The translations under genes and the position numbers were made by a program. The notes under the pieces are model-generated. The model made no database searches and had not been told where the DNA came from. It worked only from the letters and a program-made list of their open reading frames with translations. A stretch of DNA of 64,000 nt from Candidatus Omnitrophota bacterium. Its GTDB lineage: Bacteria > Omnitrophota > Gorgyraeia > Zapsychrales > JANLHA01. This document shows positions 2,437 through 64,000 of this stretch, one piece after another (the stretch's first letter is position 1; each line of letters begins with the position of its first letter). The stretch spans positions 2,868-66,867 of the forward strand of contig JAHFFT010000001.1 in NCBI GenBank assembly GCA_023247795.1, read 5' to 3'.

Positions 2437-2448
2437 ACCTCGGTTAAA

Positions 2449-2976: not shown

Positions 2977-3075
2977 TCCCAATGAAAAAAAATCCTCGGA
3001 ACCGGACAAAAACTCCCCTCCCAGACTCTTTATTAAACAGATTCAATTTATCCTTTATTTTCAGACGAGTAGGAA

Positions 3076-3870
3076 CTATATCATTCTCTTTCTTACCAGC
3101 TCCATGATTTGAATGATCGCTTCTTGGGCATTGTCATAGATCACCAAATCCGCATAAATGTCATAAGGAGTTGCCATCAGATTGATGATCAAAACTTTGG
3201 CCCCCCGCCGTTTGGCCTCGATCACCAAATAGGCGGCCGGCTGGACTAAAAGGGACGCCCCAATGACGATAAAAAGATCGCTTTGCATGGTAGCCTGCAG
3301 GGATCGCAGAGAAGACTCCAAAGGCATGGGTTGTCCAAAGGCAATGGTGTTTGATTTTAAAATACCCCCGCACAAATCACAATAAGGAACCTGGATTCCC
3401 CCTCCTTTAATCCGCTGATAGATATGATCTCGAGAGAACCGGGCATAACAATGCAAACAACTGACCGAAAATATACTGCCATGGATTTCGATCACTTTTT
3501 CTTCTGACGATTGCGCCCTTTGATGAAGGCGATCGACATTTTGGGTGATCACCGCCAACAATTTCCCTTTATGTTCTAATTCCGAATAGGCATAATGAAC
3601 CTCATTCGGTTGTACCCGCAGCACCAATTCATAAAATTGCTGTTCCATTTCCCAAAAGATCTTTCGTGACCTTTCACTGTCAATGAATTGCTGATAAAGA
3701 AAGTCCTTAGGATCATATTTGGTCCAATAACTGTGTCCGATCCCTCGAAAATCAGGTACACCCGAATCCGTGCATGCCCCCGCACCAGTAAAGCCGACGA
3801 TCTTCTGTGAACCTAAAATCAACGACGCGGCACGTTCAATTTTTTCCTTTTTCTTTCGCGTTGAAAACAT
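3076..3870 (-). CDS. cobB: NAD-dependent protein deacylase (sirtuin, CobB/Sir2 family)
   Basis: GAGACTDSGVPDFRG Rossmann/NAD motif, TQNVDRLH, catalytic IEIHGS, and a Zn ribbon CLHC...CDLCGG. The ATG shares one nt with the upstream stop (TGATG). Confidence 0.85.
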   Translation of the reverse strand: MFSTRKKKEKIERAASLILGSQKIVGFTGAGACTDSGVPDFRGIGHSYWTKYDPKDFLYQQFIDSERSRKIFWEMEQQFYELVLRVQPNEVHYAYSELEHKGKLLAVITQNVDRLHQRAQSSEEKVIEIHGSIFSVSCLHCYARFSRDHIYQRIKGGGIQVPYCDLCGGILKSNTIAFGQPMPLESSLRSLQATMQSDLFIVIGASLLVQPAAYLVIEAKRRGAKVLIINLMATPYDIYADLVIYDNAQEAIIQIMELVRKRMI

Positions 3871-4958
3871 CAGCCTTGTCCAATCAGTTTTTCAAGGTCT
3901 CGCCAATAATGATCAGCAAAAACTTCTCCGCGGTACCACTCCAGACCAAATTCCGGAGAATAGACCAATTCCATGGGAACGGCATAAAATCCATCTTTTC
4001 GCTTTAATCGATTCGACTTAACTAACCAAATGATAAAAATAGTCACGGCATTGAAAGGAATAACAAAAGTTGGGAAAGGAAGATAATGGATTCCCAGATA
4101 GGTCAGAAGAACAGCGCCGAGACACCCCAAGAAGGTCAAGACACAAACATGTTTGTTAATCACAATAAAAATCCCCCCCAAGGCCAAGACAGTGGGAATC
4201 GAATTATAAATGTACAATTCCAGCATTCCAAATTCGTGTACTCCCCCCAGGAAAAAAATCAATATGATATTGATCAAGGTTGCCACGCTGACCACGAAAA
4301 ATGATAGCGAGGAATGGTAAAAAACGGCAATCATAATAATGAAAAAAGCCATCATATGATTAGAAAAGGCTTGCAAGAATATTTTTATGGTCTCCCACGT
4401 CCATTGCTTATTGGATAACGTGATGATACTCGCATTGAAATTCCGAAAATATTCGATCATACGCTCATCGGGGCCGCGCCAACTGCTCGACGGAAAAAAA
4501 TGGTTTGAAAGACTGCTCAGCAACAATAGGAGAAGTAGCGAAGGAATACTAAAGACCGGGAGGTTGGCAATTGTTCGGGCATTGAAATCACTCATCGCCT
4601 TCATCATCACTGAAGAAAGCGCCGCCGCAAAAATGAAAAGCAGAAGCGAGATAAAATTCAAATTGAAAAACCAAGCCCAGGCCACCCCAAGGACAACACC
4701 ATTGAATCCGTAAACCCCCGAGTTGATATGAAAGGGCCGCACTTTCAGATGAATGGCTGTGGCCGTCGACGCCATAACCCCTAAGACCGTCAGAAACCAT
4801 ACCTCCCTCGAAATAACAAAAATGGCGACGGATAAAAGAAAACCGGTGAGTTGATTAGGGCAAATCAGGACTTGCCCATATCCCTTTAAAAGGACCTGTA
4901 AATGTGGAAGGAATTTATCACGGGGAAGAAATTCTCTCCATTCGGTAAGATAATCCAT
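3870..4958 (-). CDS. Urea-transporter (UT) family channel-like membrane protein with an extra C-terminal cytoplasmic tail
   Basis: First-half signature LLKGYGQVLICPNQLTGFLL...LGVMASTATAIHL...SGVYGFNGVVLGVA. Second-half signature LYIYNSIPTVLALGG. About 10 hydrophobic segments, then a ~60-aa hydrophilic tail. Confidence 0.65.
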   Translation of the reverse strand: MDYLTEWREFLPRDKFLPHLQVLLKGYGQVLICPNQLTGFLLSVAIFVISREVWFLTVLGVMASTATAIHLKVRPFHINSGVYGFNGVVLGVAWAWFFNLNFISLLLFIFAAALSSVMMKAMSDFNARTIANLPVFSIPSLLLLLLLSSLSNHFFPSSSWRGPDERMIEYFRNFNASIITLSNKQWTWETIKIFLQAFSNHMMAFFIIMIAVFYHSSLSFFVVSVATLINIILIFFLGGVHEFGMLELYIYNSIPTVLALGGIFIVINKHVCVLTFLGCLGAVLLTYLGIHYLPFPTFVIPFNAVTIFIIWLVKSNRLKRKDGFYAVPMELVYSPEFGLEWYRGEVFADHYWRDLEKLIGQG

Positions 4959-4970
4959 GCGTGGACGATT

Positions 4971-6371
4971 TCATTTTTGCAGTTTCAAACGGTCGGGTAA
5001 CACATCTAGACGACGAAAGTCGGACATGACTTCCGGCATTCGCAAATATTCCGCCTCACCATGATGAACAATGACAACCGCGGGACGCGCATAAATGAAC
5101 TGCATTGATTGGCTCATATTATAAGCGCCGACATTCTTAATGATAAGCTGACTGCCCTTCTGCAACTGTGGTAAGCGCACGCCTAAACGAATCACATCGA
5201 TTTGCATGCACAAGGGGCCATACACATTCACATTATCCAAATGGGGGCCCATGTCCTGGACAGTCATAAATTCATGTTTATACCAATAAGCCGTAACCAA
5301 AATATTAACACCCGCATCAATGATAATCGCCTTTGTTCCATCAGCGAATCGTTTGGTCGCCACAACCGTTGTTATCATCGACACTGCCTCATCTACCAGG
5401 GAACGTCCCGGCTCGAGGATCAAACGGGGTTTGCTCTTAAACTCCTGAACCCGATTGCGCAACGGATAACAGAGGGCTTCCGCATACTGCTCTAAGGTCG
5501 GAATGATCGCGGAACCGGTTAAAAACTGCGAATGGAGAGTATTGCAGGAGGCATAGCCTCCCCCCATATCAAGATACTCAATCTGCACGTCGAATTCCCG
5601 CTCCAATTTTAAAGCAAAATCAATCAACTTATTAACCGCCTGATAATACGCCCCGTGGTCAGAGATGTAAGTCCCGATATGACAATGTAAGCCGTTCAAC
5701 TGCAGACTTCCCGACGAGACAACCCGACGCGCTGCTTCAAAGGCCTGTCCGGCCTCGAGATTAAAACCAAACTTACTCCAAGCCGGATAAGTCACATCAA
5801 CATTGACCCGAATCCCTACCTTCGCGGGATCCTTCTTAGACGGCCAAAGATTTTCAATTTGCTGAATCTCATCAAAAGAATCAATATTTATGATCGACTT
5901 TCCTTTTATGGCTCGCATCAGATCGGCACTTGTTTTATGGACACCATTGAAAACAATTTTTGTCGATGGCATACCTAAGTCTTCGGCCATTTCATATTCC
6001 AAACCCGAAACGACTTCTGCCCAGGCCCCTTCTTGATGCAAAATCGTACAAATACCAGAAAGATAGTTGGTCTTGTAAGAATAGGCAATATAGGTATCGG
6101 AATAAATTTTGCGTAAATTCTTGATAAAATCCCGATATCGCTGCCGAAGATCTTTCTCCGAAACAACATACAAAGGAGAACCATATTTGGCAACGAGTGT
6201 GGAGACATCCACACCGTCGATCTGCTGACAGGGAGTCGCGCTTAATGTTCGACCACGATATTTGTTCGTTGCTGCCAGCGAATGAATCGTGATCAGCGGT
6301 TTTTCGTAGGTGCCTCGGCGAACGCCGGGCGTCACAGTTTGACTTTTGGAATCATGATTTCTATGAATCAT
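4971..6371 (-). CDS. Fold-type III PLP-dependent decarboxylase (Orn/DAP/Arg decarboxylase family)
   Basis: YSYKTN (PLP lysine), GLHCHIGT, DMGGGY, EPGRSLV and GPLCMQIDV are the family motifs, in the correct order. There is an 11-nt overlap with the upstream ATP-grasp gene. Confidence 0.85.
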   Translation of the reverse strand: MIHRNHDSKSQTVTPGVRRGTYEKPLITIHSLAATNKYRGRTLSATPCQQIDGVDVSTLVAKYGSPLYVVSEKDLRQRYRDFIKNLRKIYSDTYIAYSYKTNYLSGICTILHQEGAWAEVVSGLEYEMAEDLGMPSTKIVFNGVHKTSADLMRAIKGKSIINIDSFDEIQQIENLWPSKKDPAKVGIRVNVDVTYPAWSKFGFNLEAGQAFEAARRVVSSGSLQLNGLHCHIGTYISDHGAYYQAVNKLIDFALKLEREFDVQIEYLDMGGGYASCNTLHSQFLTGSAIIPTLEQYAEALCYPLRNRVQEFKSKPRLILEPGRSLVDEAVSMITTVVATKRFADGTKAIIIDAGVNILVTAYWYKHEFMTVQDMGPHLDNVNVYGPLCMQIDVIRLGVRLPQLQKGSQLIIKNVGAYNMSQSMQFIYARPAVVIVHHGEAEYLRMPEVMSDFRRLDVLPDRLKLQK

Positions 6372-7419
6372 GAAAGATGAGTTCCTTTGTTGTTGCTAAC
6401 TGACCTAAACGACTGATCTCACACGTCATATCCAGCGAACTTCTTGCAAATAAAATCCCTGGTTTGAAGGGCAATTCAAAATCACCTTTTTTCCCAGAGG
6501 CAATCATAATAGCCGCCTTGGGCATATTACAACCGGCCTTGGCAGCCAACTGAATCCAATTCGGAAAACGCGGCCGGATATCCGTCAAAACATATTGGTT
6601 CGTAGTATGGCTCTTCACAAATTCCAATTCGGCCGGGCCACACCATTGGATTTCTTTTAACACCTTCCTCGCCATATCATCCAAGATCTCATCTTGCGTG
6701 GTCATGCCAATCCACGTTGACCCGTTTCTCGATTTGACAATTTTTTTCATGCCGGCACAAGCAACAACCTGATGCCGACGATTTGTCAGAGCGGCGATGG
6801 AATACTCATCACCACTGATATACTGCTGTAAGACCAAGGGACTTCCCCAACTCTCAAAAAATCGGTTGCTAAAAACACCTGCTTCTTGCGTAGAATAAAC
6901 TAACTGCTGTTCGCCACTGGGACATTTAACGTAAAAAGGCGAATAGAAATTCAGTGCCAAACTGGCTAATTGAGCTTGATCCCACAAAGGCATCGTATAA
7001 GGAACACCGACTTCGATGTTAACGGCCCAATAAGGAATACTTTCGGTCCGTGCTTTTCTTAAACTCGCTTCGCTGGGAATGAGCATTTTTACACCAAGGT
7101 CCCGCAGATCCGGCTCGAGTTTGATCATCGATGGGATTTCAAATTCCAGATTCGGGATAAGAAAATTGTTCTTGGACGTATCAACAATTTCTTTCATCCG
7201 TGATAGGTAACGATCTTCCTCTTCCTGCGGATAAGGAACAACATAAACCGCATCCACAAGTTTATCCAAATAGGCAATGCTGTCCAATAATTCATATACC
7301 AGCGCAATGATTTTGACTTCGAAATCGGCTTCGTTGCGAAGACAGCGAATAACCCCTATTCCGGGAGCTGGATCGGCTCCGGCATTTAAGCCGGTGACAT
7401 AAATATGATACCGTGCCAT
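6361..7419 (-). CDS. ATP-grasp family ligase (paralogue 2)
   Basis: 352 aa. The N-terminal layout is shared with 7430..8518 (YVTGLNAGADPAPGIGVIRCL vs FTGVDSTENPYPGLSVLRAI). The C-terminal ELEFVKS...VLTDIRPRFPNW resembles the ATP-grasp E-x-N/D-x-R Mg/ATP site. Confidence 0.7.
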   Translation of the reverse strand: MARYHIYVTGLNAGADPAPGIGVIRCLRNEADFEVKIIALVYELLDSIAYLDKLVDAVYVVPYPQEEEDRYLSRMKEIVDTSKNNFLIPNLEFEIPSMIKLEPDLRDLGVKMLIPSEASLRKARTESIPYWAVNIEVGVPYTMPLWDQAQLASLALNFYSPFYVKCPSGEQQLVYSTQEAGVFSNRFFESWGSPLVLQQYISGDEYSIAALTNRRHQVVACAGMKKIVKSRNGSTWIGMTTQDEILDDMARKVLKEIQWCGPAELEFVKSHTTNQYVLTDIRPRFPNWIQLAAKAGCNMPKAAIMIASGKKGDFELPFKPGILFARSSLDMTCEISRLGQLATTKELIFHDS

Positions 7420-8895: not shown

Positions 8896-11400
8896 TTATG
8901 CCCCTCTATTCAATTCCCCCAAACCGTTTAAGGCTCCCAAATGTCCTGGAACAATTTCCAAGGCTTTCATAAATCTTTGCTTTGCCGCACTTTTATCGCC
9001 CTTCTTCAAATCACACCAACCCAACGCGGTATAAGGATCGGCATAAATATCCTGCTCTTTATGCAGCTCGAGAAGTTGATTAAAATATCCGGCTGCCTTA
9101 TCATAATTTTTAGTGTAAAAGTAACTCCAGCCTAAATTATTCAATACCACACTCCATTTCAACCATCCGTCTTCCTTCTCCGGTTTCTTCGATAAGAGCG
9201 GTTCCAGTCGATCAATCGCCCCCTTATAATCACCCTGGATAAAATAGATCGCTCCTAAACCTAAAGAAGCGCTTTCCGAGGTTGGCTCCTTCGCTAATAC
9301 TTTTGCAAATGATTCGGAAGCCTTCTTATAAATGCCCTGATAATAATAACTCCATCCTAACCGGCTATAAAGATCAAACCAGCCCTTTTCTGCGGCAAGG
9401 ATCTTTTGAAAATCCTCCGTCATTACATAATCCGGATAAATGTCGATGGCTTTCGCAAAGGCTTCTTTAGCAGGATCCAAGTTTTTAACTTGATACTGAC
9501 TTAACCCCAAACCATAATAAGGATCGACCCAATAGGGGTTGATATCAATGGCCATTTGAAAGCTTTCCGCGGCCTTAGCGTAATCTTTGATCTTATAAGA
9601 ACTCCAAGCTAAAGCGGTCAAGGCGGAATAATTTTTTGGGCTTTCTGCCACGGCTTTCTCTAAATATTCTTTAGCGCCGACATAATCTTTCCTTTGAAAT
9701 AAAATATTGCCTAAACCACTCAGGGCATCGAGATTTTTAGGATATTCCGCCAATAATTCTCGGAATTCTTTCTCCGCACTATCCTCTTCCCCTAAACGAT
9801 AGTAACACCAACCGATCCCTCCCCGCATGGCCAAGGCCTTATCTTGCGGAATATTTTTACCAGCATTTTGCAGGTCATATTTAAATTGCTTCAAGGCCGA
9901 AAAATAATCTCCTTGATAATAATAACTCCAGCCCAAATCGGTCCGCCCATATTTGGCTTGATCAACGGCCAGCAAACCATTTAAGGCATCCGCATAGCTT
10001 GGATTGAGAGCGAGCACGGCTTTAAATTCTGATTCCGCATCATCAACCTTTTTCAACATATAATACGACCATGCCAATCCATCATGCGGATCAATCCAAT
10101 TAGGCTGATTCGTAACCGCCTTTTTAAACTCTTGTGCTGCTTCACTGTATTGTCCCAGTTTATAATCCGCCCACGCCAGGCTTGACTGGGCATCGCTTTG
10201 CACTAAATAGCTGGCAATGGTCCCGGGGATTTGGACATATTCGCTCACCGCCGGTAAAGTCGGATTCTCCTTTAACGATTGCTTAAAATATTTTGCAGCA
10301 TCTTCAAATTGACCCAATTTATAAGCGGCATAACCCAAACCCCTTAAGGTTTCGCCATTCTTTCCTAAAACTTTAGAAGCCTCATCAAATTCTTGGGCCG
10401 CGAGTTGAAAATACCCTTGTTGATAATAACTCCATCCAACCACATTATAGAGATCTTGCCAATCCGTCTGAATTTTGAGAACATTCTTAAATTGTTCATC
10501 GGCGACAAAAGGATAAATGTTGATGGCCGTCGTAAAATACTCCTTTGCCTTCGGGAAATCCTTCAAATCAAAATACGTCCAGGCCAAACCTTTATAAGGT
10601 TCAACCAAATAGGGGTTCAATTGTCGGGCCTTCTCAAACTCTGCTTTTGCCCTCTCAAAATCAGATTTGCGATTATAAATCCACCCGATCTTGCTTTGCA
10701 CATCCGGTTGATAAGCTTGAACATCAAGCGCTTTCTGCAAAAAAACCAAGGCCTGATCAAAATCATTCATCTCAAAATACGAAAAACCTATTCCTTTGAT
10801 GGCATCAAAACTATCCTTTTGCAGACTCAACACTTGCTCAAAATTATGAATGGCTTCCTGGTATTGCTTGTTGAAATGATACGACCATGCCAATCCAGTG
10901 TGAACCCTCCACAATTCTATATTCGGTAAACGTCCACTGGTATCAGCAACAATGGCTTCAAAGATAGTAATCGCCTTGCTATAATTCCCGGCATAATAAT
11001 ATTGCCAAGCACGATTAAAAGGGCGATAACGCCAAGCACTCACTTCTGCCATCCCGTTCAGGGAACCGGGGAAATATGGATAAATTTGTAGACATTTTTT
11101 AAAATTCTCTTCCGCAGTAACAAATTCGCCTTTTTGTAAATAATTCCATCCTAACCCATCATAGGGATCACACCAATCCGTGTGCTCCTGAACTTCTTTC
11201 TGAAATACCCCAATCGCTTGATCATATTGTTTATCATAATAAAGATCCCAAGCCTCTTGGGAAACGGTGGGCTCTTCCTTTTTATTGTTTTCCTCAGCCA
11301 CGGCCTTTTGAACATTGATGAAAACATTGATCAAAACAAAGATCGTCACAACGACAAAACATAACATCGTTTTACAGCTCATTAATTTTTTTAAACGCAT
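8896..11400 (-). CDS. Large TPR-repeat protein with N-terminal signal/anchor
   Basis: 834 aa. Hydrophobic N-terminus MLCFVVVTIFVLINVFINVQKAVA, followed by about 20 repeats of the W/G-WxY...A...F.KAL...P TPR pattern. Confidence 0.8.
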   Translation of the reverse strand: MRLKKLMSCKTMLCFVVVTIFVLINVFINVQKAVAEENNKKEEPTVSQEAWDLYYDKQYDQAIGVFQKEVQEHTDWCDPYDGLGWNYLQKGEFVTAEENFKKCLQIYPYFPGSLNGMAEVSAWRYRPFNRAWQYYYAGNYSKAITIFEAIVADTSGRLPNIELWRVHTGLAWSYHFNKQYQEAIHNFEQVLSLQKDSFDAIKGIGFSYFEMNDFDQALVFLQKALDVQAYQPDVQSKIGWIYNRKSDFERAKAEFEKARQLNPYLVEPYKGLAWTYFDLKDFPKAKEYFTTAINIYPFVADEQFKNVLKIQTDWQDLYNVVGWSYYQQGYFQLAAQEFDEASKVLGKNGETLRGLGYAAYKLGQFEDAAKYFKQSLKENPTLPAVSEYVQIPGTIASYLVQSDAQSSLAWADYKLGQYSEAAQEFKKAVTNQPNWIDPHDGLAWSYYMLKKVDDAESEFKAVLALNPSYADALNGLLAVDQAKYGRTDLGWSYYYQGDYFSALKQFKYDLQNAGKNIPQDKALAMRGGIGWCYYRLGEEDSAEKEFRELLAEYPKNLDALSGLGNILFQRKDYVGAKEYLEKAVAESPKNYSALTALAWSSYKIKDYAKAAESFQMAIDINPYWVDPYYGLGLSQYQVKNLDPAKEAFAKAIDIYPDYVMTEDFQKILAAEKGWFDLYSRLGWSYYYQGIYKKASESFAKVLAKEPTSESASLGLGAIYFIQGDYKGAIDRLEPLLSKKPEKEDGWLKWSVVLNNLGWSYFYTKNYDKAAGYFNQLLELHKEQDIYADPYTALGWCDLKKGDKSAAKQRFMKALEIVPGHLGALNGLGELNRGA

Positions 11401-11489
11401 ACTCTCCTCCTATGTTAATCTAAATCTGTTAAATAACTGCTCAAAATAGTTATCCTTGACAACAATGATCGTACGGGAAGTTTTTGTTC

Positions 11490-12611
11490 TTATAAAGAAT
11501 TGGTCTTTTGATCGACTTGCTCAAGTCCGGTGAGAGAACTCTTATACGAAGGAGTAAGAGCTAAGGCTTTATTGAACATCACTCGAGCAGCTTTCATACG
11601 TCTACGACTCGTTTTATTTTTTCCTTTGGCGGTCTTATCATTATCCCAGTAAAGATACGACCAACCGATCTTATCGTAAATTTCAGCATTTCTTTCATAC
11701 TTCAAAGCCTGTTTATAAATCCCTATGGCTTCTTGATATCGCTTTAAAGAAAACAAGCAATCTGCCCATTTGATTCGGGCGTCATTCCATTGCGGCTTCA
11801 GCCGAGTGGCCATTCGAAACTCTTTTAAGGCCTTTCCAAAATCCTGACGGCTAAAATTAAGATAACCTAATGCCCGATGAGCTTCCGGCTCAGTTTTAAC
11901 ATGCACGCCCCTTTGATATCGCATCCCTTTAACTAAGGCCCGCTGGAGATATTTTTCGGCAATCTCAACTTCTCCCTTTCGAAAATAACACCAACCCAGA
12001 CCTGCATAGGCATCAGAAGAATTAGAATCTATACTCAACGCTTGTTCAAAATAGTTAATGGCTTGGGCCCAATCTGATTTTTTAAAATTTGCCCAACCTC
12101 TCCCGGTATAAGCATCAACGACCTTAGGATCCACTAAAACCAAATCGCCAAACGTTTTGCTGGCACTCTCATAATCACCTTTACCAAAATAGGCCCACCC
12201 TAGCAAAGTCAAGGCCTCTGAACTCAAGGGATTCTGTCTCACTGCTTTCTCAAAATATTCAATGGCTTTCTCGTGATTGTTAACCGATAAATAATACGAC
12301 CCTTCTGAGGCATAACCTTTGCCTCGACGATCTCCGGTGGAAGTAAAAATGGGTTCTTCTCCTACATTAACAACGGTCATCGCCATTTCAACGGGCTTTG
12401 TTCCTATTTCATAAAGTGACTTAAAAAGTTCCGGTACCTGCTTGACATTCGTCATAGACTTCGCAACATCAACCGGTAGCTTCGCGATTCCCACAACCTC
12501 CTCTTTGACCAGTTTCGGCACTTTTTTAACGGTGGCAGCACAGCCGGTCATCATTCCTCCAGCCAGCAGCAGGGTGATGAATTGCAAACATGGGTATGAG
12601 GAAATTTTCAT
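11490..12611 (-). CDS. TPR-repeat lipoprotein
   Basis: Lipobox-like LLLAGGMMTGC at the N-terminus. Multiple TPR units (GWAYFGKGDYESA, GWANFKKSDWAQA, GWCYFRKGEVEIA). Confidence 0.75.
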   Translation of the reverse strand: MKISSYPCLQFITLLLAGGMMTGCAATVKKVPKLVKEEVVGIAKLPVDVAKSMTNVKQVPELFKSLYEIGTKPVEMAMTVVNVGEEPIFTSTGDRRGKGYASEGSYYLSVNNHEKAIEYFEKAVRQNPLSSEALTLLGWAYFGKGDYESASKTFGDLVLVDPKVVDAYTGRGWANFKKSDWAQAINYFEQALSIDSNSSDAYAGLGWCYFRKGEVEIAEKYLQRALVKGMRYQRGVHVKTEPEAHRALGYLNFSRQDFGKALKEFRMATRLKPQWNDARIKWADCLFSLKRYQEAIGIYKQALKYERNAEIYDKIGWSYLYWDNDKTAKGKNKTSRRRMKAARVMFNKALALTPSYKSSLTGLEQVDQKTNSL

Positions 12612-12628: not shown

Positions 12629-14227
12629 TTAAAACTCGATATCCAAACCAAATTCCACTTGATAGGCGCCATCGGCCTCGCCATCCCGTCGAGGAGTAGG
12701 CGCGAATATGTTATTGGCGGCAGTATCGGCGCGGGTTTCCTTATAATAATCTCCCGGGAAAAAATATCCTGACAAAATACTAAACTTTATGGCTTTGGTG
12801 ATTTGATAACTAGCAAAGACATCCAATTCCTGGCCCAAGTCTTTTGAAAAAGTTTTTAAATTCCCATTGCCATCCAGACCCCATCCCGGTTCTTTTGAAC
12901 GCAAATACCAATAATCCACGCCGATATACCATTTTTCAAGTGGGGTATAATCAAATCCAACGGTCGAAGCAATCAAATTTTCAAACATGAAAGGGTCACC
13001 AAAGGTCCCGGGACGAGCGACGCCAAAATTGACCGCGTATCCGCCTGCCATTGCCACATAAGGACCAAACTGTTTCTGATAATGCGTATCGGTTAAATTG
13101 GTGTTTAATGGGGAAAAAACACTGAAGGCCTCATTTTCATTACTGGTGAGGGTAAGTTCATTATAATTCTGCGCGTTGAATCGGTTACCGGAGGCCATAA
13201 AAAATTTCGTCTTCGGTTTGAACGCCCCCAAATCATAACTGGCATCCGCAACCAAAAGATAACCTTTATGTTCGATATCATTTTGTGCCGTGTTGATGGC
13301 CTTCGCCTTTCCCAAATTTTGGTCCCCTTCAAACCCAAGATTCAGACGGTCAAAATTCAGTTTTAAATAAGCCCCTGGTGTCACAAGATCTTCGTTTTTC
13401 ACACGGGTGCTGAATCGACTTGCACGCGCACCTTCTGGTGTTCGATCCCTCAGCCAGCCGGTATAAAGTTGTAACCGTTGTTTACCCAATTTGAATGTCG
13501 TATCCGCCGTATAAAAGTAAGCATTGGTGTCATTCCAATCATTGACCTTCTCATGATCAATGACTTTTCCTAAATGAATACGATTATTCAGATCTTCTTT
13601 TTCCCAGTGGACATTCCAATCGAGTGATTCATTAACTCCAGAAAGGGTTAGCCCATAATTTTCATATTTTCCACCCAAGGCAATGTTATGACCAAGATCG
13701 CGTCCGTAAGGATACAGACCAAATTTGAAATTGACATCTTTCGTTGAATTCACCGGAACTTCCAGCCAGGTTTCTCTTAATCGAGGATATAAATCTGAGT
13801 TTTGGTACCAATGATACCGTCCAAATAAAGAGTTGATGCCACGGCTCCCATAAAGCGGGGCATCATAATCGGCGCGCCCCCTTCTTTCTACAAAAGAATA
13901 AAACTCAAGGCCGGAAAGATGGCGGAGATCAAAAGTAAAGTCATAAGCTAACCCAAGATAACTGGTCTTATCATTGTTATTCGCTAAATCAAGATCAACC
14001 GTATTGTTCACTAAATTATAAGACGTACGCAGGTGCGCTCCGGAATGAAATTTCCAATTTGATTCATCCAATAAAAAAGGATGTTTCTCAACATCCAAAT
14101 CTTTAACGTCTTTAAAATAACTCTGAGCATATATAGAGGAAGGCAGGGCAAATAAGGAAAGGAAAATAAAAATATTGACGAAAGGCTGAAGGAAAACTTT
14201 TTTACTTTTTTTGTTTTTACAAGTCAT
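12629..14227 (-). CDS. Outer-membrane beta-barrel protein (porin/exporter-like)
   Basis: The ORF-track start at 14269 is TTG. ATG 14227 gives MTCKNKKSKKVFLQPFVNIFIFLSLFALPSSIYA (signal peptide). Alternating amphipathic strands run throughout, and the C-terminus is FGLDIEF (aromatic terminal residue typical of OMPs). Confidence 0.65.
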   Translation of the reverse strand: MTCKNKKSKKVFLQPFVNIFIFLSLFALPSSIYAQSYFKDVKDLDVEKHPFLLDESNWKFHSGAHLRTSYNLVNNTVDLDLANNNDKTSYLGLAYDFTFDLRHLSGLEFYSFVERRGRADYDAPLYGSRGINSLFGRYHWYQNSDLYPRLRETWLEVPVNSTKDVNFKFGLYPYGRDLGHNIALGGKYENYGLTLSGVNESLDWNVHWEKEDLNNRIHLGKVIDHEKVNDWNDTNAYFYTADTTFKLGKQRLQLYTGWLRDRTPEGARASRFSTRVKNEDLVTPGAYLKLNFDRLNLGFEGDQNLGKAKAINTAQNDIEHKGYLLVADASYDLGAFKPKTKFFMASGNRFNAQNYNELTLTSNENEAFSVFSPLNTNLTDTHYQKQFGPYVAMAGGYAVNFGVARPGTFGDPFMFENLIASTVGFDYTPLEKWYIGVDYWYLRSKEPGWGLDGNGNLKTFSKDLGQELDVFASYQITKAIKFSILSGYFFPGDYYKETRADTAANNIFAPTPRRDGEADGAYQVEFGLDIEF

Positions 14228-14407
14228 TCTCAAAGATTGTTGAGATTCAAATTTTATAACATCTCGCAAACATTTTTTATCCTAAGCATTTTTCGTTTCA
14301 ATTGCAAGTTTTTTTTAAATTTTTTGTGGGACAGGCCAAAAATCCCGGGTATCAGGGATAAAAGATGTTGCTGGTAAAAGTCGTAAATCCTTTTTCTCGT
14401 CGAATGT

Positions 14408-57538: not shown

Positions 57539-58720
57539 TTATTCATTCAAAGATTGTATCCGTTGATAACAATCAAGAACATTCAGGTAGGAATGAATTG
57601 AAACATCTTCCCTGTTAAATTCATTTTTGCCTCCATAAACGACAGCCCGGCCCAACATATCTTTGCCAGCCAAACGCTTTAGAAAATCAAGGCCTTTAAA
57701 AAATTCCTCATGTATGGTCTGCCCCGCTTTGATTTCGACACTCATAATCCGGCGGGCCTTTTCGATGATCAGGTCCACCTCGCTGCCGTGATTATCCCTA
57801 AAAAAATAAAGCGGCGCCTCTCGCCCCTGCGACCAAAAATATTTCAAGAATTCAATGACCACAAAATTTTCAAACAAGGCACCCCGCAAAGGATCACGGC
57901 TCATCTGAGAAGACTTTTCGATCCCCAGCAAATATGCCGCGAGTCCGGTATCGTAAAAATACATTTTAGGGGCCTTAATGATCCTTTTCTTCCAATTACG
58001 GTAATAAGCTGGAAGCAAAAAAACCACATAGCTCGCTTCCAGAACAGACATCCATTCCTTGATCGTCGTATGCGAAACCCCTAAGTCATTGCTGATACTA
58101 GAGAGGTTAAGTATTTGACCGATCCGCCCGGCGCATAGTTTCAAAAATTTCTGGAATGAAGAAAGGTTCTTGACATTGATGACCTGCCGCACGTCCCGTT
58201 CCACATAGGTCGCGACATAGTCGCGCATCGCGTCGGAAGGGTCAATCTTTTGATCAAAAATCCTGGGGAAAAACCCTGTGTGGACAATGTCATCCGCTGT
58301 ACGCTTTTGGATCAAAGAACGGATTTCCTCCACCGAAAAGGGCAAAAGTTTCAGGACGGCCGTACGGCCGGCCAAAGACTGCCGAATGGACCGCAATAAC
58401 AAAAGGTTCTGACTACCACTGAGAATATACAGACCATTTTTGTTACGTTCATCGACAATCCCCTGAAGATAAGAAAGGATTTCCGGGACCCGTTGGACTT
58501 CATCCAGAATAGCTCCTTCAGGATAACGGCCCAGAAACCCCCTGGGATCCTGCATGGCTAGTTCACGAATATCCGGAATCTCAAAAGAAAGATAAGATTT
58601 TTTGGGGAAAACTTTACGGCACAACGTGGTTTTGCCGGATTGCCTAGGCCCGGTCACCGAAACAACCGGATAATGTCTGGCGGATTCCCTGAGTTTGGCT
58701 TCAAGAATTCTAGTGATCAT
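57539..58720 (-). CDS. AAA+ ATPase with C-terminal PD-(D/E)xK nuclease-like domain (AAA_14/DUF4143-type architecture)
   Basis: ATG 58720 gives MITRILEAKL. Walker A GPRQSGKTT, Walker B AILDEVQRVPE, and C-terminal GSEVDLII...MSVEIKAG (D...ExK). The ORF-track extension to 58864 reads through repeat copy 2. Confidence 0.75.
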   Translation of the reverse strand: MITRILEAKLRESARHYPVVSVTGPRQSGKTTLCRKVFPKKSYLSFEIPDIRELAMQDPRGFLGRYPEGAILDEVQRVPEILSYLQGIVDERNKNGLYILSGSQNLLLLRSIRQSLAGRTAVLKLLPFSVEEIRSLIQKRTADDIVHTGFFPRIFDQKIDPSDAMRDYVATYVERDVRQVINVKNLSSFQKFLKLCAGRIGQILNLSSISNDLGVSHTTIKEWMSVLEASYVVFLLPAYYRNWKKRIIKAPKMYFYDTGLAAYLLGIEKSSQMSRDPLRGALFENFVVIEFLKYFWSQGREAPLYFFRDNHGSEVDLIIEKARRIMSVEIKAGQTIHEEFFKGLDFLKRLAGKDMLGRAVVYGGKNEFNREDVSIHSYLNVLDCYQRIQSLNE

Positions 58721-58791
58721 AAATAAACCATACCACATCTTGTACAGTTTGCAAGTTAAATATTCAATTAGTACAGATTTGTTCTCAAACC

Positions 58792-58909
58792 TTAATTCCC
58801 AAAAAGGTCGACAGATCGTAAAGCGGCTGGACATTGATGATGACCGGGACAAAACCTGGAGCATTTTGCAATTGTTTGAGCAGGGCGGGATCGAGATGAA
58901 ATTGGATTT
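58792..58909 (-). repeat. Orphan copy 2 of the 3' end of gene 60206..64000 (118 bp, about 89 percent identical by hand count)
   Basis: Aligns base for base with 60210..60327, with 13 mismatches by my count. It retains the frame KIQFHLDPALLKQLQNAPGFVPVIINVQPLYDLSTFLGIKV-stop. No homologous sequence lies upstream of it. Confidence 0.85.
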
Positions 58910-58976
58910 TTATGGAATACACAATTCTTCGGTTGTTTTAAAAATATTATTGACAAAGGCTCCATATTCGTCGAAA

Positions 58977-60161
58977 ATGGAGTCTATGCAATACATATTA
59001 AGACTGACCGAAAACGATATCCAAAACTCTTTACAACGCAATAAAAGTGTTTTATTGTTGGGCGCTCGTCAAACCGGTAAAACAACCCTCATTCAGCGGC
59101 TGCCGGCCGACTTGTCGATTTCCTTTGTCCGTCCGGATGTCAGGCAGCAATACGAAAAAAACTCCACGCTTTTAGTGGGAGAAGTTGAAGCACTAAAGAG
59201 CAAAACGCCCGCGGCTCGCCCCTTGGTTGTTTTAGATGAGGTCCAGCGTGTCCCAGAAATACTCGACATCGTTCAGGATCTCATTGATCGAAAAATAGCC
59301 AACTTTATTTTAACCGGATCCTCCGCAAGAAAATTACGCCATGGATCTCACATCAACCTTCTTCCGGGAAGAGTGACGGCTTTAAAACTAAATCCACTTA
59401 ACATTCAAGAAATTCCGCAAACAGATCTTAAAACGCATTTGCTCTACGGCTCTTTGCCGGCTATTCATCAGGTTACTTCACTGAAAGACAAAGAAATCGA
59501 CCTAAGCTCTTATGTCATCACCTACCTCGAGGAAGAAATCCGTGCCGAAGCGATTGTTAGAAATTTAGGGCCGTTTGCCCGCTTTCTGGAATCAGCGGCT
59601 ATTGAATCAGGAAAGGTCGTGAACTTCAGAAAACTTTCTCAAGAAATCGGTGTTGCCCACACAACCATTGCCTCTTATTATCAAATTTTGGAAGACTGCC
59701 TGATTGTCGAAAAAATAATGCCACTGACAAAAAGCGAAACACGCAAAAAGCTGACCAAAACCCATAAATATATCTTTTTCGATATGGGCGTTCGACGGCT
59801 CACCGCGCATCAAAATACTCAATTGACCAAAGAAATGTGGGGATATCTGTTCGAACAATTCATTGGACTTCAGCTCATTCAACTAGCCGAGCTCTCCGAT
59901 AAAAATATCCAGATCAAATTTTGGCGAGATCCCGATGGCCCGGAAGTAGACTTTATTGTCGACAACAATCATAGCTACTTGCCTCTAGAAGTCAAATGGA
60001 CAAAAAGCCCTACAGCAAAAGACGTTAAACATCTGAAAGTATTCTTAAATGAATATCCCAATGCTAAACAAGCCTATCTCATCTGCCAATGTGAGCGGGA
60101 TGTTGCCCTTGAAAAAAACATTACCGCAATCCCCTGGCAAAAAATAAAAAATATTTTTTAA
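58977..60161 (+). CDS. AAA+ ATPase with C-terminal PD-(D/E)xK nuclease-like domain (second, divergent paralogue)
   Basis: ATG 58977 gives MESMQYILRL. Walker A GARQTGKTT, Walker B VVLDEVQRVPE, and C-terminal GPEVDFIV...LPLEVKW. The ORF-track start at 58695 is an antisense read-through of repeat copy 2. Confidence 0.75.
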   Translation: MESMQYILRLTENDIQNSLQRNKSVLLLGARQTGKTTLIQRLPADLSISFVRPDVRQQYEKNSTLLVGEVEALKSKTPAARPLVVLDEVQRVPEILDIVQDLIDRKIANFILTGSSARKLRHGSHINLLPGRVTALKLNPLNIQEIPQTDLKTHLLYGSLPAIHQVTSLKDKEIDLSSYVITYLEEEIRAEAIVRNLGPFARFLESAAIESGKVVNFRKLSQEIGVAHTTIASYYQILEDCLIVEKIMPLTKSETRKKLTKTHKYIFFDMGVRRLTAHQNTQLTKEMWGYLFEQFIGLQLIQLAELSDKNIQIKFWRDPDGPEVDFIVDNNHSYLPLEVKWTKSPTAKDVKHLKVFLNEYPNAKQAYLICQCERDVALEKNITAIPWQKIKNIF

Positions 60162-60205: not shown

Positions 60206-63200
60206 CTATTTAATTCCCAAAAAGGCCAATAAATCGTACAGCGGCTGGACATTGATGATGACGGGGACAAAACCCGGGGCATCTTGCAGTTGCTTGAGTA
60301 GGGCGGGATCAAGATGAAATTGGATTTCACCGTTCTGATTTACTTTCAGGTTCATTTTGTTAGGATCGAAATCAATACCACCAAGCTGATCAGGACGATC
60401 CGACATCTCCGGTGCTGCGTCCTCACCTAACATCAACCGATCCGACGCTCCTCCGCCATTGGGCTTCTGATTTTGTAAACTGTCCTCTGCATTACTTTGC
60501 ACTTCTCTAATTTTAGCTTCAATGCGATTGACCGCGTCAGGGTACAATTTACCTTCAACGAAATCGGCCTCATTCAAAGGAACCCAATATTTCGCTTCAA
60601 TCTTCTCTATCCCAACACCGATTAAATCATTGGAATGGTTTTCAAAATGTTCACGCATCAATGCGAACGCATCGGCTGTAGATAAATATTTTATCATTTT
60701 AATAAAATCCACACTGCTGTTTATCGCAGCAACTTGCTTAGTTAGTCTTTCCTCGATATCCAATTCCATTAATTCTGTCTTGTCATCCAAGGTTGGCGTA
60801 TACTCCCCTAATTTTTGAATATATATTGTATGTTCTTTCCCTTCCTCAATGTCACAAGAATAGCCAATGTTGCGCAAAATAATTGATAATATTTCTTTAT
60901 CCTTATATTCACTGTCAAATAAAATGAACCAACCATCATTCTCAAGGACACGCATAACCTCTTTTAAGACCACCATAAAATCTTTGATCGAAATAAAATA
61001 TACCATCACAAAAGACTCGTTGATAATGTCTATGGACTGATTACTAAATGGTAGCCGACGGAGATCACCATTGACAAGCTGCACACCTGGCAACGATTGT
61101 TTAGGATCGATATCCATATCAATGCCTATCCCTTCTACTTGATCACCTAATTCTTTCCTAAGTTCGACCAACGCCCTGCCTTCTGGACCAGAACCCAAAT
61201 CTAAAACCCGCAATTTACCTGGCGCCTTTCGCGCCAGATGGTCTTTGATCAGCTCCAAATGTTTTAGCAAATAATCCGGTCTATTACTATCACGGGCATA
61301 TTTCTGATGAAACACCTCCCACAAAAAAATCTCGTCTTTCTCAAGAGTCCCCAATTCTTTCAGACGATTTATTAATCTTCCCACAATCTTACCTTGCAAA
61401 AGTTCTTGCATATTAAACTTTCTAAAATATTGGACCATAATCATGCCAAGATGTTCTGGGATTGGCTTTTGAATTCCACTGAAACGAAGCCATCCTTCGT
61501 TTAACAGTCGCACTTTTTCATCCATGCTCAAAGACTCCTCCCCCAATTTAACACTCAAAATTTCTGCGAATTTTTCAACATCATCTCCGGTCTCATTCAA
61601 TATTCCCTGAAATATATCCTGACCAAGCATTAGACGATCCGCTGTTTCTACAGTAGCAGACGGCTCCGCCAAATCCCTCATCGCCATTTCATCTAATATT
61701 TCAATAGAAGGATTCTTTGCCATCCTGATCTGCTCCGGCTCTAAAACCGCGATATGAATATTCCTACTCCCAAACATAACCGCATCTTCATCTTGCAGCT
61801 CTCTCAATCCTGTAAAAAATAAATTATCGTATGCTTTTCCCAAAAATTCTGTGACATTGACATATTCAGGATGCCGTTCAATGACATTCAAAGGTTTTCT
61901 GACATTCAAAAAAGCAGACATTAAAATCTTCTTTACTGTATTAGGGACATATAATTGCTCTCCATTAATTTTTATAAGATGACAATTAATTTTATTTGGT
62001 GCTAATCCATCAAATAAATCAGCAAGCTCTGATTGAACAAACAAATTCTTTCCATCAAAAACTACGATTCCAGGTTTCTTTGTAAACGATACCCGATCCA
62101 GATTCTCTGCGTTTTCGATAAATTCATTCCATTTTTTAAACACTGCAGGCGTATCGGTAAGATTAAACTTTTCTTTTAGCAGAGATAACATGCTTTTTAA
62201 AAATTTAAATCTAAAATAGCTAAATTCATTCACAACAAAATCTCGATCTGAAGAGAAATAAAATGCATGTCTTTCACCAAAATCAAAATTCCTGCGCGCA
62301 TTTTTATCAAATTCATTAAATTCCCTGCCAGTTCCATGATAAAAAATTTTGGGCTCACCGGTTTCGGCATCAATCATTTTCGAGGCTAATTCGGGATGAT
62401 TTATCCAATCTCCAAACCATGCGATAAAATCAGGATCTCTCACTTGTAAAAAATGTAGGAGCCCAAGTTTAGAGGGTTTGCCATTTGGCGCTTTCAATTC
62501 AACCACTTTTCCATCTTGAATTTTAATGTTTCCATTCAAAACTTCTCTATTAAAAATCTGCTTATAAATTTCTATATCAATATGATCATCATATCTTTCT
62601 GTCAATGTTGACAACATCAATCGATCAAATCGCCCAACTTCATCCGCTGTTTCTACAGCGGCAGGCGGCTCCGCCAGATCCCTCATCGCTTGATTGCGCT
62701 CGGTGATCTGCTGATCGAGATCAGCGCTGCTACGCATCTCGATTCGATAGACCATTGCTTGCTCGCTTATCATCTCTTCAACCACTTTTTGGAATAAAAC
62801 CGCTGTCTCCGGCGAAGAATGGATGACCCTTCTGTAAATCTCCCTCTGATTTTTATCATTAATCCGCCAATAGGAAACATATCTCCTTATGAACTCTTCC
62901 ATTGATAAATCCAAAGGAACCCACCCCCATTCCGATTCCGGCAATTGCCTGATGAACGCGATCGTCGCTGCCGGTAAATTCAATCGCCGCGGCAGAACCT
63001 CATTAAAAATGCTGTCGCGGGACGGACTTTCAACGCCAATGGTATCCGCAAATCGATCCAGATGGTATAAACGAAACAGCAAGGCTCCAAGATGATCATC
63101 TCTCTCTTTCATCAGCGCCCTTTCCACAGCAAAATCAAAAAATTCTGCATTCGCAACATTGATTCTCTGGGCAACAAACAGCTCTTTCATAATTTTTTGA

Positions 63201-64000
63201 TGACCTTTTCCAGCAAGTGATTGGTACACCTCCCAAAGCAATCGTACCTGCTGTTTTTCGTTCAAATGTCTTAAAGGGATAAGTTGCTGAAGTCGTCTCG
63301 CCAGTTCCTCAAAATTCCTTGCCGTCATAATTGGATAAATCAATGTGGATGAAGACAGCCCCATCAATTCCGCGATCTTTGTATAAGCCCTTATCAGATC
63401 TCGATAATCTTTTGCCTTTTTAAAAAGTATTTTTTTTCGCGTGTAAATTAAGCTATACGGTGAGACGCTGCTCAAATCGCGATTCTCCAATGCATAAGCA
63501 ATGATTTCATCTTTAAAACGTTTAAAGGCATCGAATTCCGCGTCAAACATCTCAGGAGTTTGATTTGGATTGACATTGATTTTCCTTAAAACATTTTTTC
63601 TAAAAAAATAATTGTGAAGTTCATGATGAAATTCGTGTCTTGAGGTACTGTCGTCTTTAAAAATTTTGGTTTCTTGCAAGCTTTTGGCTAATTTGGGCCT
63701 TGGTAATAGCATAAACCCCACATCTCTGCTATTACTGCTCATAAAACAAACAGCCACTCCATTAAAAATAAATAATTTTTGATCACGGAGCAATTCAAAA
63801 AAAGGATCTTCAACTTCCAGCATAAACACACCCGGTTTGATTTCGATCAAAACTCCAGCTTTCCGATTTGCTTGGACGTCGCTCGGGCCAATCTGATATT
63901 GTTTAATGAACTCTAAAACCTGTTTCAAATCTTCCGCAATCTTCTTTGCTCCCCTATTGAAACCATTTGCAATGATAGCAACTGACAGAAAATACAATAC
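60206..64000 (-). CDS. Large modular protein (at least 1263 aa; 5' end probably beyond the right window edge): HExxH module, YHGT ART-like module, class-I SAM methyltransferase module, shared C-terminal domain
   Basis: The frame is open to the window edge, and the track start is a TTG 3 nt from the edge. HEFHHELH at ~63614..63640. FYHGTGREF at ~62331..62345 and AFYFSSDRDF...SY at ~62247..62266. VLDLGSGPEG at 61179..61207. C-terminal LGGIDFDPNKMNLKVNQNGEIQFHLDPALLKQLQDAPGFVPVIINVQPLYDLLAFLGIK at 60209..60388. Confidence 0.8.
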   Translation of the reverse strand, partial: VLYFLSVAIIANGFNRGAKKIAEDLKQVLEFIKQYQIGPSDVQANRKAGVLIEIKPGVFMLEVEDPFFELLRDQKLFIFNGVAVCFMSSNSRDVGFMLLPRPKLAKSLQETKIFKDDSTSRHEFHHELHNYFFRKNVLRKINVNPNQTPEMFDAEFDAFKRFKDEIIAYALENRDLSSVSPYSLIYTRKKILFKKAKDYRDLIRAYTKIAELMGLSSSTLIYPIMTARNFEELARRLQQLIPLRHLNEKQQVRLLWEVYQSLAGKGHQKIMKELFVAQRINVANAEFFDFAVERALMKERDDHLGALLFRLYHLDRFADTIGVESPSRDSIFNEVLPRRLNLPAATIAFIRQLPESEWGWVPLDLSMEEFIRRYVSYWRINDKNQREIYRRVIHSSPETAVLFQKVVEEMISEQAMVYRIEMRSSADLDQQITERNQAMRDLAEPPAAVETADEVGRFDRLMLSTLTERYDDHIDIEIYKQIFNREVLNGNIKIQDGKVVELKAPNGKPSKLGLLHFLQVRDPDFIAWFGDWINHPELASKMIDAETGEPKIFYHGTGREFNEFDKNARRNFDFGERHAFYFSSDRDFVVNEFSYFRFKFLKSMLSLLKEKFNLTDTPAVFKKWNEFIENAENLDRVSFTKKPGIVVFDGKNLFVQSELADLFDGLAPNKINCHLIKINGEQLYVPNTVKKILMSAFLNVRKPLNVIERHPEYVNVTEFLGKAYDNLFFTGLRELQDEDAVMFGSRNIHIAVLEPEQIRMAKNPSIEILDEMAMRDLAEPSATVETADRLMLGQDIFQGILNETGDDVEKFAEILSVKLGEESLSMDEKVRLLNEGWLRFSGIQKPIPEHLGMIMVQYFRKFNMQELLQGKIVGRLINRLKELGTLEKDEIFLWEVFHQKYARDSNRPDYLLKHLELIKDHLARKAPGKLRVLDLGSGPEGRALVELRKELGDQVEGIGIDMDIDPKQSLPGVQLVNGDLRRLPFSNQSIDIINESFVMVYFISIKDFMVVLKEVMRVLENDGWFILFDSEYKDKEILSIILRNIGYSCDIEEGKEHTIYIQKLGEYTPTLDDKTELMELDIEERLTKQVAAINSSVDFIKMIKYLSTADAFALMREHFENHSNDLIGVGIEKIEAKYWVPLNEADFVEGKLYPDAVNRIEAKIREVQSNAEDSLQNQKPNGGGASDRLMLGEDAAPEMSDRPDQLGGIDFDPNKMNLKVNQNGEIQFHLDPALLKQLQDAPGFVPVIINVQPLYDLLAFLGIK
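61637..62689. repeat. Intragenic ~49-bp direct repeat encoding the inter-module linker
   Basis: 62641..62689 and 61637..61685 (CCGCTGTTTCTACAG..GCAG.CGGCTCCGCCA.ATCCCTCATCGC) encode AMRDLAEP(P/S)A(A/T)VETAD, each followed by DRLML. A third DRLML is encoded at ~60428..60445. Confidence 0.8.

Follow-up and report, generated by a model that had tools for sequence, protein, structure and literature searches.

The 64,000-nucleotide (nt) stretch analyzed here, called the window below, comes from a Candidatus Omnitrophota bacterium (GenBank assembly GCA_023247795.1, contig JAHFFT010000001.1, positions 2,868 to 66,867 of the forward strand). At its end, on the minus strand, lies most of the gene for a modular protein, P0001, in which the pentapeptide DRLML stands at each of the three module junctions. 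Sequence comparison indicates that DRLML is one lineage's form of a short motif, D-x-A-M, with Leu replacing Ala at position 3, and that P0001 belongs to an Omnitrophota-specific, highly paralogous family of modular proteins in which D-x-A-M delimits the modules. The motif is kept by selection on the peptide, not as DNA. With moderate confidence, we read it as a proteolytic processing or sorting site serving polyprotein maturation. In what follows, P0001, P0002, and so on are protein labels and L0xx are locus labels of this analysis.

The DRLML feature is real and non-random. P0001 is made, in this order, of a signal-peptide-like segment, an N-terminal domain of ~310 amino acids (aa) (N-domain), modules A, B, and C, and a C-terminal domain (CTD) of 58 aa. 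The original prediction had placed DRLML at the A/B, B/C, and C/CTD junctions, and the translation has it there, in the contexts that had been quoted (Table 1). It is the sole 5-mer with three copies in full-length P0001; any 5-mer present at least three times was obtained in 29 of 20,000 residue shuffles of the protein. The flanking modules are unrelated, as had been stated: B is an ADP-ribosyltransferase (ART) of the ART-PolyVal family, C is an S-adenosylmethionine (SAM)-dependent methyltransferase, and A has no match in Pfam or the Protein Data Bank (PDB). Module B and the methyltransferase module share 23% identity when forced into a global alignment. Copies 1 and 2 are preceded by AMRDLAEP(P/S)A(A/T)VETAD, encoded by a direct repeat that had been described as ~49 base pairs long and ~90% identical, and that comes out at 48 nt with 44 of 48 positions identical (92%). 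No direct repeat in the gene is longer, and its 24-nt core gave no double match in 100 dinucleotide shuffles. Departing from the earlier description, an extra 18 nt (EVGRFD) lies between ETAD and RLML at junction A/B.

The original prediction had neither the phylum-wide family nor the canonical form D-x-A-M. The layout of the family is a Sec-type signal peptide, the N-domain, a repeated unit of motif plus enzyme module, a final motif, a short spacer, and the CTD; its members are probably exported. The N-domain and CTD each gave a profile. The N-domain profile (built from three sequences; cutoff E ≤1e-5) finds more than 1,520 proteins at 50–70% identity, labelled Omnitrophota where the source names them, save a few exceptions (single Heimdallarchaeota- and Minisyncoccia-labelled fragments, and unlabelled metagenome records). 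With the CTD profile (GGIDL...GFxPVI...FLG), matches were obtained in at least 3,606 clusters (50% identity); every match is at the very C-terminal end, and the longest protein has 3,494 aa. In species-representative genomes, 272 loci were located, nearly all in Omnitrophota metagenome-assembled genomes (MAGs). One genome has at least nine dispersed paralogs, and some paralogs are in tandem. Many carrier MAGs (L001, L006-L009, L053, etc.) are labelled "uncultured Planctomycetales bacterium" and one "Phenylobacterium sp."; these, like the Heimdallarchaeota- and Minisyncoccia-labelled fragments, are probably mislabelled or mis-binned. Among the 2.9 million viral contigs of IMG/VR, a single distant relative of the N-domain was found. 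Neither Pfam nor NCBIfam has a model for the N-domain or the CTD.

In this family, D-x-A-M sites occur after the N-domain, between modules, and 1–35 aa before the CTD. Between N-domain and CTD, 266 non-redundant members have 371 D.AM against 16.9 expected (22-fold). Of 135 representatives, 49 have a strict D.AM in the last 40 aa ahead of the CTD (0.5 expected), and representatives of at least 700 aa contain 122 copies outside the CTD (6.1 expected). The record is held by P0220 with eleven copies, ten of them of the form D[RLN]AML; P0216 has nine of the form D[NQE]AML. The median spacing from motif to motif is 249 aa. Position 1 is D (22-fold) or N (6-fold), position 2 favors Q, R, or H, position 3 accepts A only, position 4 is M (22-fold) or Q (2.5-fold), and position 5 favors T, N, L, A, I, or V. 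The sequence flanking the motif is not conserved. The controls lack an excess of this kind: the non-family open reading frames (ORFs) at the same loci contain 34 copies against 25.6 expected, with 4 of the 34 in an uncounted family fragment, and the other 42 ORFs of the window contain 1 against 1.3 expected.

The motifs respect domain borders. In the 11 members scanned, no Pfam domain is interrupted by a motif, and motifs fall 3–44 aa past domain ends. They lie beyond the ends of DnaJ (1237-1294, motif at 1297), HATPase_c (1655-1753, motif at 1763), GNAT (973-1060, motif at 1084), His_Phos_1, and methyltransferase domains. In structure models, they are in low-confidence coil, with a pLDDT below 50 at DQAM (379) of P0006 and of ~58 at DRLML of P0001. 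In P0001, DRLM(L) occupies all three expected boundaries, and copy 3 falls, in the alignment, where other family members have D-x-A-M. The Leu variant is found at junctions only in P0001 and its relative P0002.

Codon usage bears on the level at which the motif is kept. DNA was available for 177 instances of the motif, and among these Asp is encoded by both of its codons and Ala by all four. In the P0001 gene, the DRLML cores read GATCGATTGATGTTG, GATCGTCTAATGCTT, and GATCGGTTGATGTTA, with pairwise differences of 2–5 in 15 nt, all synonymous. Copies 1 and 2 share 10 of 15 nt, the least DNA-identical part of the linker. Since the core DNA diverges synonymously next to 48 nt that are 92% identical, the core is kept by selection on the peptide, and the 48-nt repeat is a separate, recent copy. 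The same data bear on a reading of the motif as a nucleic-acid signal, with its Met as an internal start for separate cytoplasmic enzymes, or as coincidence. There is an ATG in every motif, and the cargo modules are of cytoplasmic enzyme type. We reject an internal start codon: Shine–Dalgarno-like sequences precede 10.2% of motif ATGs and 8.8% of other internal ATGs, with no excess, and D and A are kept as residues with all their codons in use. The residue shuffles and the 22-fold family enrichment speak against coincidence, and we consider this reading, in either version, hardly credible.

The only close relative of P0001 found is its ortholog P0002 (1839 aa). Its locus is syntenic, with AAA_14/DUF4143, an MS channel, and a 390-aa gene downstream, and with AsmA also at the locus. 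The two proteins are 92% identical in the N-domain, 88% in module A, and 91% in the CTD. P0002 has no ART module; a methyltransferase copy, C1, fills the ART slot. Module C of P0001 is 84.5% identical to the second copy, C2, and 76.1% to C1. Similarity between the two proteins ends directly after ...VETADRLMLS and picks up again at D[RH]LML. The junctions of P0002 (borders marked by a slash) read ...AMRDLAEPSATVETADRLMLS/QDIF... for A/C1, ...NRIEDKIR/ITDHLMLSE/TIF... for C1/C2, and ...GGGSSDRLMLGE... for C2/CTD. All three motifs are kept, and the adjoining spacer varies at 6 of 13 residues. By these junctions, what was swapped or duplicated is motif plus module, and the stretch in which the orthologs differ has the motif at either border. 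The alignment documents an exchange of modules bounded by the motif, ART against a second methyltransferase, in close relatives. Such breakpoints at the linker are what the original prediction had proposed to look for in orthologous loci.

Modules are also shared across the family. Homologous modules sit at different positions in different paralogs, and the similarity of modules shared by otherwise different paralogs often starts at or just after the motif (for example at VGDNQAML, VGDEAMV, and DNSML in P0185, L004, and L063). A homologous recombination joint was one of the two readings offered originally. In a strict form of it, the linker would be conserved mainly for DNA identity that helps to shuffle cassettes onto constant ends, as at VENN-type junctions of CdiA or effector borders of MARTX, and it would have no role as a peptide. 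The 48-nt, 92% identical repeat brackets the ART module with copies 1005 nt apart, the breakpoints of the swap or duplication between P0001 and P0002 are at the linker, paralogs share modules at different positions, and at L081 an orphan "DEAM + CTD" occurs ~900 nt past a full-length gene. Yet the DRLML cores are the part of the linker with the least DNA identity, and all their differences are synonymous. The extended linker is found nowhere else: a back-translated pattern of AMRDLAEPxAxVETAD had no match in the JGI metagenome contigs, nor did module A plus linker as a protein query, and a whole-protein search with P0001 returned only P0001, P0002, and one phage-like ART protein. The DRLML lineage is, on these searches, known from just two sequences. 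Across the family, with only four residues kept, free codons, and unconserved flanks, there is too little DNA identity for homologous recombination. Of the original proposal, the module exchange bounded by the linker stands, but homologous recombination does not account for the existence of the motif; as a primary cause it is contradicted by the codon data, and as a whole explanation it is improbable. It still holds as a side effect at this locus, through the 48-nt repeat: recombination between the two copies would delete the ART module in frame and yield an A/C junction like that of P0002.

Several side observations concern the motif and its surroundings. The near-identical P0011 and P0012 differ by a 55-aa tandem duplication (KYATKAAVEAELKRREEANLDNNAGAL...VALPKAE) after the first DQAM, a further case of length change adjoining the motif. 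At L081 (8001-8222; JGI 3300020867, contig Ga0207006_1001) and L083 (8001-8186), ORFs consist of spacer, DEAM, and CTD alone. At L081, a complete family gene (1729 aa) ends ~900 nt upstream of the orphan (...EDEAMLHK-GGIDF...CTD), and a response-regulator ORF stands between the two; the L083 orphan adjoins TraD and relaxase genes. Both are probably displaced or truncated 3′ ends. At L014, the family gene is split into an N-domain ORF (976-2283, 435 aa) and an ORF with modules and CTD (2290-7170, 1626 aa). The N-domain ORF stops 50 residues after a DYAM motif. The gene may be naturally divided near its first motif, or a frameshift or an assembly error may have broken it.

A motif of 4–5 residues in disordered linkers, at every boundary and in thousands of proteins, is what one would expect if one shared trans-acting factor recognized it. 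Of the two original readings, the one of a cleavage site in a secreted polyprotein fits this pattern best and gains strength from it. In the processing reading, a trans-acting endopeptidase or sorting enzyme, encoded elsewhere, would recognize the motif in the flexible linkers. It would cut the precursor so that the N-domain and C-terminal "handles" are removed and single enzymes are released, which for P0001 would be an HExxH module, an ADP-ribosyltransferase, and a methyltransferase. Separately, modules move between and within family genes, each unit bringing its own 5′ motif. The 48-nt repeat flanking the ART module is the trace that a cassette event of this type left, and through it the ART could readily be lost in frame. 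We infer both the cleavage and the existence of the reader enzyme. Autoproteolysis by a nucleophile beside the motif was considered and is unlikely, as no invariant Cys, Ser, or Thr follows the motif.

The reader could also be part of P0001 itself. Module A carries HEFHH, an HExxH at residues 655-659 that is present in P0002 as well, and would then be a zincin-like peptidase cutting its own DRLML linkers, like the MPTase of polyvalent proteins; embedded metallopeptidases have been proposed to process those proteins (PMC5512222), and the ART of module B is of the PolyVal type. We hold this to be very improbable. Module A gave no match in Pfam (MPTase-PolyVal included) or NCBIfam and no significant match in a PDB sequence search, HExxH by itself is common, and module A, found only in P0001 and P0002, cannot be the general reader of a family-wide motif. 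That module A is a zincin-like peptidase is in itself possible.

Some observations weigh against processing at D-x-A-M. The ends of high-scoring segment pairs (HSPs) between paralogs cluster only modestly at strict motifs: 18% of HSP starts and 27% of HSP ends are within 25 aa of a motif, compared to 13% of random positions. A second family member in the window, P0124, has no strict D-x-A-M at all; it has the look-alikes VDNALML at 652, MDNAAVV at 803, and KDSFFLG at the pre-CTD position, and its CTD has DPEQI where DPAML is expected. In the rest of the family, Leu shows no enrichment at position 3 (1.5-fold), and if one enzyme reads all the sites, the DRLML lineage needs an altered or tolerant specificity. 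No candidate protease emerges from the gene neighborhoods: all-against-all clustering of 802 ORFs within 10 kb around 80 loci revealed no conserved neighbor, the best cluster being present at 7 of the 80. The N-domain shows no recognizable peptidase fold. Finally, the CTD itself holds a near-invariant DPAM(L), so that the linker motif could be a binding mimic and not a scissile site. A per-genome preference at motif positions 2 and 5, sought as a sign of a co-evolving reader, was not clear.

This last point leads to the proposal that the motif is a docking signal that is not cleaved, with the export or translocation machinery, a chaperone, or the family N-domain as its binding partner. In one version, the motif is a miniature copy of the DPAML helix start of the CTD, and the proteins are threaded or held module by module. 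AlphaFold2 (AF2) puts DPAML at the N-terminus of the only long helix of the CTD, the last motif is just 1–35 aa away, and the CTD model (hairpin, helix, and an extended hydrophobic strand, GFVPVIINVQP; pLDDT 69, pTM 0.30) is not compact and globular, which suggests folding on a partner; the absence of a protease among the neighbors clustered at the 80 loci would fit as well. On the other side, motifs follow the N-domain and mark each internal boundary too, as sites that part units would, and a polar variable position 2 in a disordered context suits a protease site equally well. There is also no simple co-variation between the DPAM of the CTD and the linker motif (P0216 and P0220 have DPAQ in the CTD and DRAML or DEAML in the linkers). 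We regard docking without cleavage as rather unlikely.

The two end domains were modelled separately. In the model of P0006 (residues ~40-290), the N-domain is a confidently predicted alpha/beta structure with two long beta-hairpins and long helices. Foldseek searches with it against the PDB and against BFVD gave nothing at E ≤1e-3. Faint, non-significant resemblances to latherin/SPLUNC (BPI/PLUNC-like lipid binders) and to the pore formers ClyA, MakA, and YaxB are leads only. The CTD has no transmembrane helix and, judged by its model, resembles a signal that depends on a partner more than it does a globular domain. Divergent CTD subtypes occur at L081 (1909-7098) and at the C-termini of L021, L026, L039, and L077 (e.g., GGIDLNSANLSMMIKRDGKGVVLPLAQQDLAQLSNIEGLDPIILSIKP); these carry QQDLAQL or NPAM in place of the internal DPAM. 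In the L081 protein, there are 16 [DN]xA[MQL] sites between N-domain and CTD, many of them NSAMT.

Most middle regions of the family have no Pfam match. Where matches exist in other members, the cargo includes DnaJ, HATPase_c, protein kinase, GNAT, histidine phosphatase, SNF2 helicase, methyltransferases, NAD-dependent epimerase, HAD-superfamily hydrolase, and HEAT repeats. These enzyme types normally act inside cells. It is possible, and we propose it tentatively, that N-domain, D-x-A-M, and CTD together constitute a previously unrecognized Omnitrophota-specific export-and-processing pathway, in which a dedicated enzyme would yield cocktails of free enzymes for use on prey or host. Dozens of precursor genes per genome would then feed cocktails of intracellular-acting enzymes (J-domains, kinases, ADP-ribosyltransferases, methyltransferases, SNF2 helicases, GNATs), and the N-domain would be a membrane-active or translocation handle.

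The coordinates of the features in the window are collected in Table 1. The ORF 60206..64000 (minus strand) is the 3′ 70% of the P0001 gene, with 1263 codons plus stop. The ORF 60206..63997 (minus strand) is open to the window edge with no stop upstream, and the 5′ end of the gene is outside the window. The complete product, P0001, has 1797 aa and is 100% identical to the window ORF across the window part. Residues 1-345, upstream of module A and outside the window, comprise the N-domain and the signal-peptide-like N-terminus, which probably reads MSCQRSVSLTVIACFLISSLNLPVVFA/QEG. P0001 and its paralog P0124 are on one NCBI contig of 137,881 nt.

Table 1. Positions in the window of the parts of the P0001 gene and of its paralog
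Feature	Position	Strand	Remarks
Module A, partial in window	62690..64000	-	P0001 residues ~346-965; 88% identical in P0002
HEFHH (HExxH) in module A	63637-63623	-	P0001 655-659; kept in P0002; read from sequence
48-nt direct repeat, copy 1	62642..62689	-	encodes AMRDLAEPPAAVETAD; repeat search
Junction A/B linker, AMRDLAEPPAAVETAD-EVGRFD-RLMLS	62609..62689	-	translation
DRLML copy 1 (GAT CGA TTG ATG TTG)	62612..62626	-	P0001 residue 992
Module B, ADP-ribosyltransferase	61685..62608	-	ART-PolyVal Pfam match 62365-62219
48-nt direct repeat, copy 2	61637..61684	-	1005 nt (335 codons) from copy 1
Junction B/C linker, AMRDLAEPSATVETADRLMLG	61622..61684	-	translation
DRLML copy 2 (GAT CGT CTA ATG CTT)	61625..61639	-	P0001 residue 1321
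Module C, class-I SAM-dependent methyltransferase	60443..61621	-	Pfam Methyltransf_11/25/31, match 61216-60908
DRLML copy 3 (GAT CGG TTG ATG TTA)	60428..60442	-	P0001 residue 1720; 20 residues before CTD
CTD, 58 aa (GGIDF...FVPVIINVQP...FLGIK)	60209..60382	-	top match of own profile
P0124, second family member, 2093 aa	16019..22300	-	N-domain 55%, CTD 30% identical to P0001

The match of module B to ART-PolyVal (PF18760) has E=1.6e-10 and 42.3 bits (cutoff 31.2) and is partial, covering profile positions 2-45 of 140. P0124 has no Pfam domain anywhere, and its middle is unrelated to P0001. Its gene is set among chromosomal housekeeping genes (FtsA, FtsQ, MurC-Ddl, TPR). Downstream of it come an unannotated ORF of 366 aa and then, at 12629-14269 and 8896-12611 (both minus strand), a 546-aa ORF with a weak match to Alginate_exp (an outer-membrane beta-barrel) and two TPR proteins. 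These neighbors could be export partners or a coincidence; no such neighbor is conserved at the 80 loci. Just downstream of the P0001 gene, at 57539-60161, there are two AAA_14/DUF4143-type ATPase ORFs on opposite strands that overlap at 58695-58864; these calls are based on resemblance to the annotated gene of the P0002 locus. The P0002 locus has a single AAA_14/DUF4143 gene, on the same strand as the family gene, and the plus-strand copy in the window looks like an insertion in this genome.

Among known systems, the multifunctional-autoprocessing RTX toxins (MARTX) of Vibrio and relatives have constant ends and a variable central array of unrelated effectors. Their modules are parted by short unstructured cleavable linkers, and the repertoire is changed by recombination between alleles. 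The P0001 family likewise arrays unrelated effector modules between constant termini. Unlike MARTX, P0001 has neither the RtxA glycine-rich repeats nor Peptidase_C80 (CPD) in Pfam searches of its window part with E up to 1, and the precomputed Pfam list for the full-length protein has methyltransferase and ART families only. The family has a Sec-type signal peptide, where MARTX use the Sec-independent type I secretion; its junction is D-x-A-M and not Leu-X; and it has many dispersed paralogs per genome.

Polyvalent proteins of phages and conjugative elements contain 2–15 unrelated enzymatic domains per polypeptide (Iyer et al. 2017, PMC5512222) and have been proposed to be processed into functional units after delivery (PMC5512222). 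ART-PolyVal, methyltransferases, and SNF2 helicases are present in the P0001 family too. In contrast to polyvalent proteins, the family genes are chromosomal and not linked to phages or plasmids (one distant match in the 2.9 million viral contigs mentioned above), with no recurrent phage or conjugation gene set among the neighbors of 80 family loci. The proteins also have a signal peptide, fixed N- and C-terminal domains, and a conserved delimiter motif that Iyer et al. do not describe; the main text of PMC5512222 contains neither "linker" nor "Omnitroph". The polyvalent MPTase has no recognizable counterpart domain in P0001, where HEFHH is present with no Pfam or PDB match. By analogy, MARTX and polyvalent proteins may be considered as the closest functional counterparts. 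Membership in either is excluded by the lack of RtxA repeats and CPD, by the chromosomal, non-viral context, and by the signal peptide and fixed ends.

In polymorphic toxins (CdiA with VENN, Rhs with PxxxxDPxGL, MafB), a short peptide marks the border between constant and variable parts, and the variable parts are swapped. The P0001 family shares with them the border peptide, the swapping of modules, and displaced orphan 3′ fragments (L081). The differences are that its variable part is internal and multiple, that its C-terminus is constant, and that no adjacent immunity gene or other conserved neighbor is found at the 80 loci. No known pre-toxin or trafficking domain appeared in the Pfam scan of the window part. 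As its C-terminus is constant, being in fact its most conserved part, and no immunity gene adjoins it, the family does not count as an ordinary polymorphic toxin system.

In the type IX secretion system (T9SS; CTD and PorU), a C-terminal sorting domain is taken off by a peptidase dedicated to it, and sortase and exosortase signals are of this kind too. The resemblance here is a single conserved CTD on otherwise unrelated, putatively exported proteins of one phylum, with a short motif upstream. The CTD has no match, with E up to 1, to Por_Secre_tail, TIGR04183, or the NCBIfam sorting-signal models. Unlike the C-terminal domains of T9SS cargo, it has 58 aa and is not predicted to be a beta-sandwich, and D-x-A-M recurs internally and after an equally conserved N-domain. 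The family is not T9SS cargo. It belongs, by analogy with these systems, among modular multi-effector precursors with junction motifs.

The uncultured phylum Omnitrophota consists of ultra-small bacteria that probably live as predators or parasites and are known for very long multi-domain proteins. Whether such long proteins act whole or cut up is an explicit open question in the field. West-Roberts et al. (2023, 10.1101/2023.11.21.568195) state that missing information on cleavage points blocked their analysis. No description of the family, the motif, or the end domains turned up in the Omnitrophota long-protein papers inspected or in full-text searches aimed at Omnitrophota. At this locus, the family motif explains the repeat noted originally, and the swap of the ART for a second methyltransferase is a concrete case. 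At the level of the phylum, a family of thousands of modular proteins, distinct from the Omnitrophota giant proteins, is identified. Its two conserved "handle" domains, of which the N-domain has no counterpart in the solved and viral structures searched, are a starting point from which the machinery for transport or processing should be found. With a delimiter of four residues, sequence alone suffices to predict module boundaries and candidate cleavage points; this lets metaproteomics address cleavage and gives a rule for parsing these proteins into units of structure and function.

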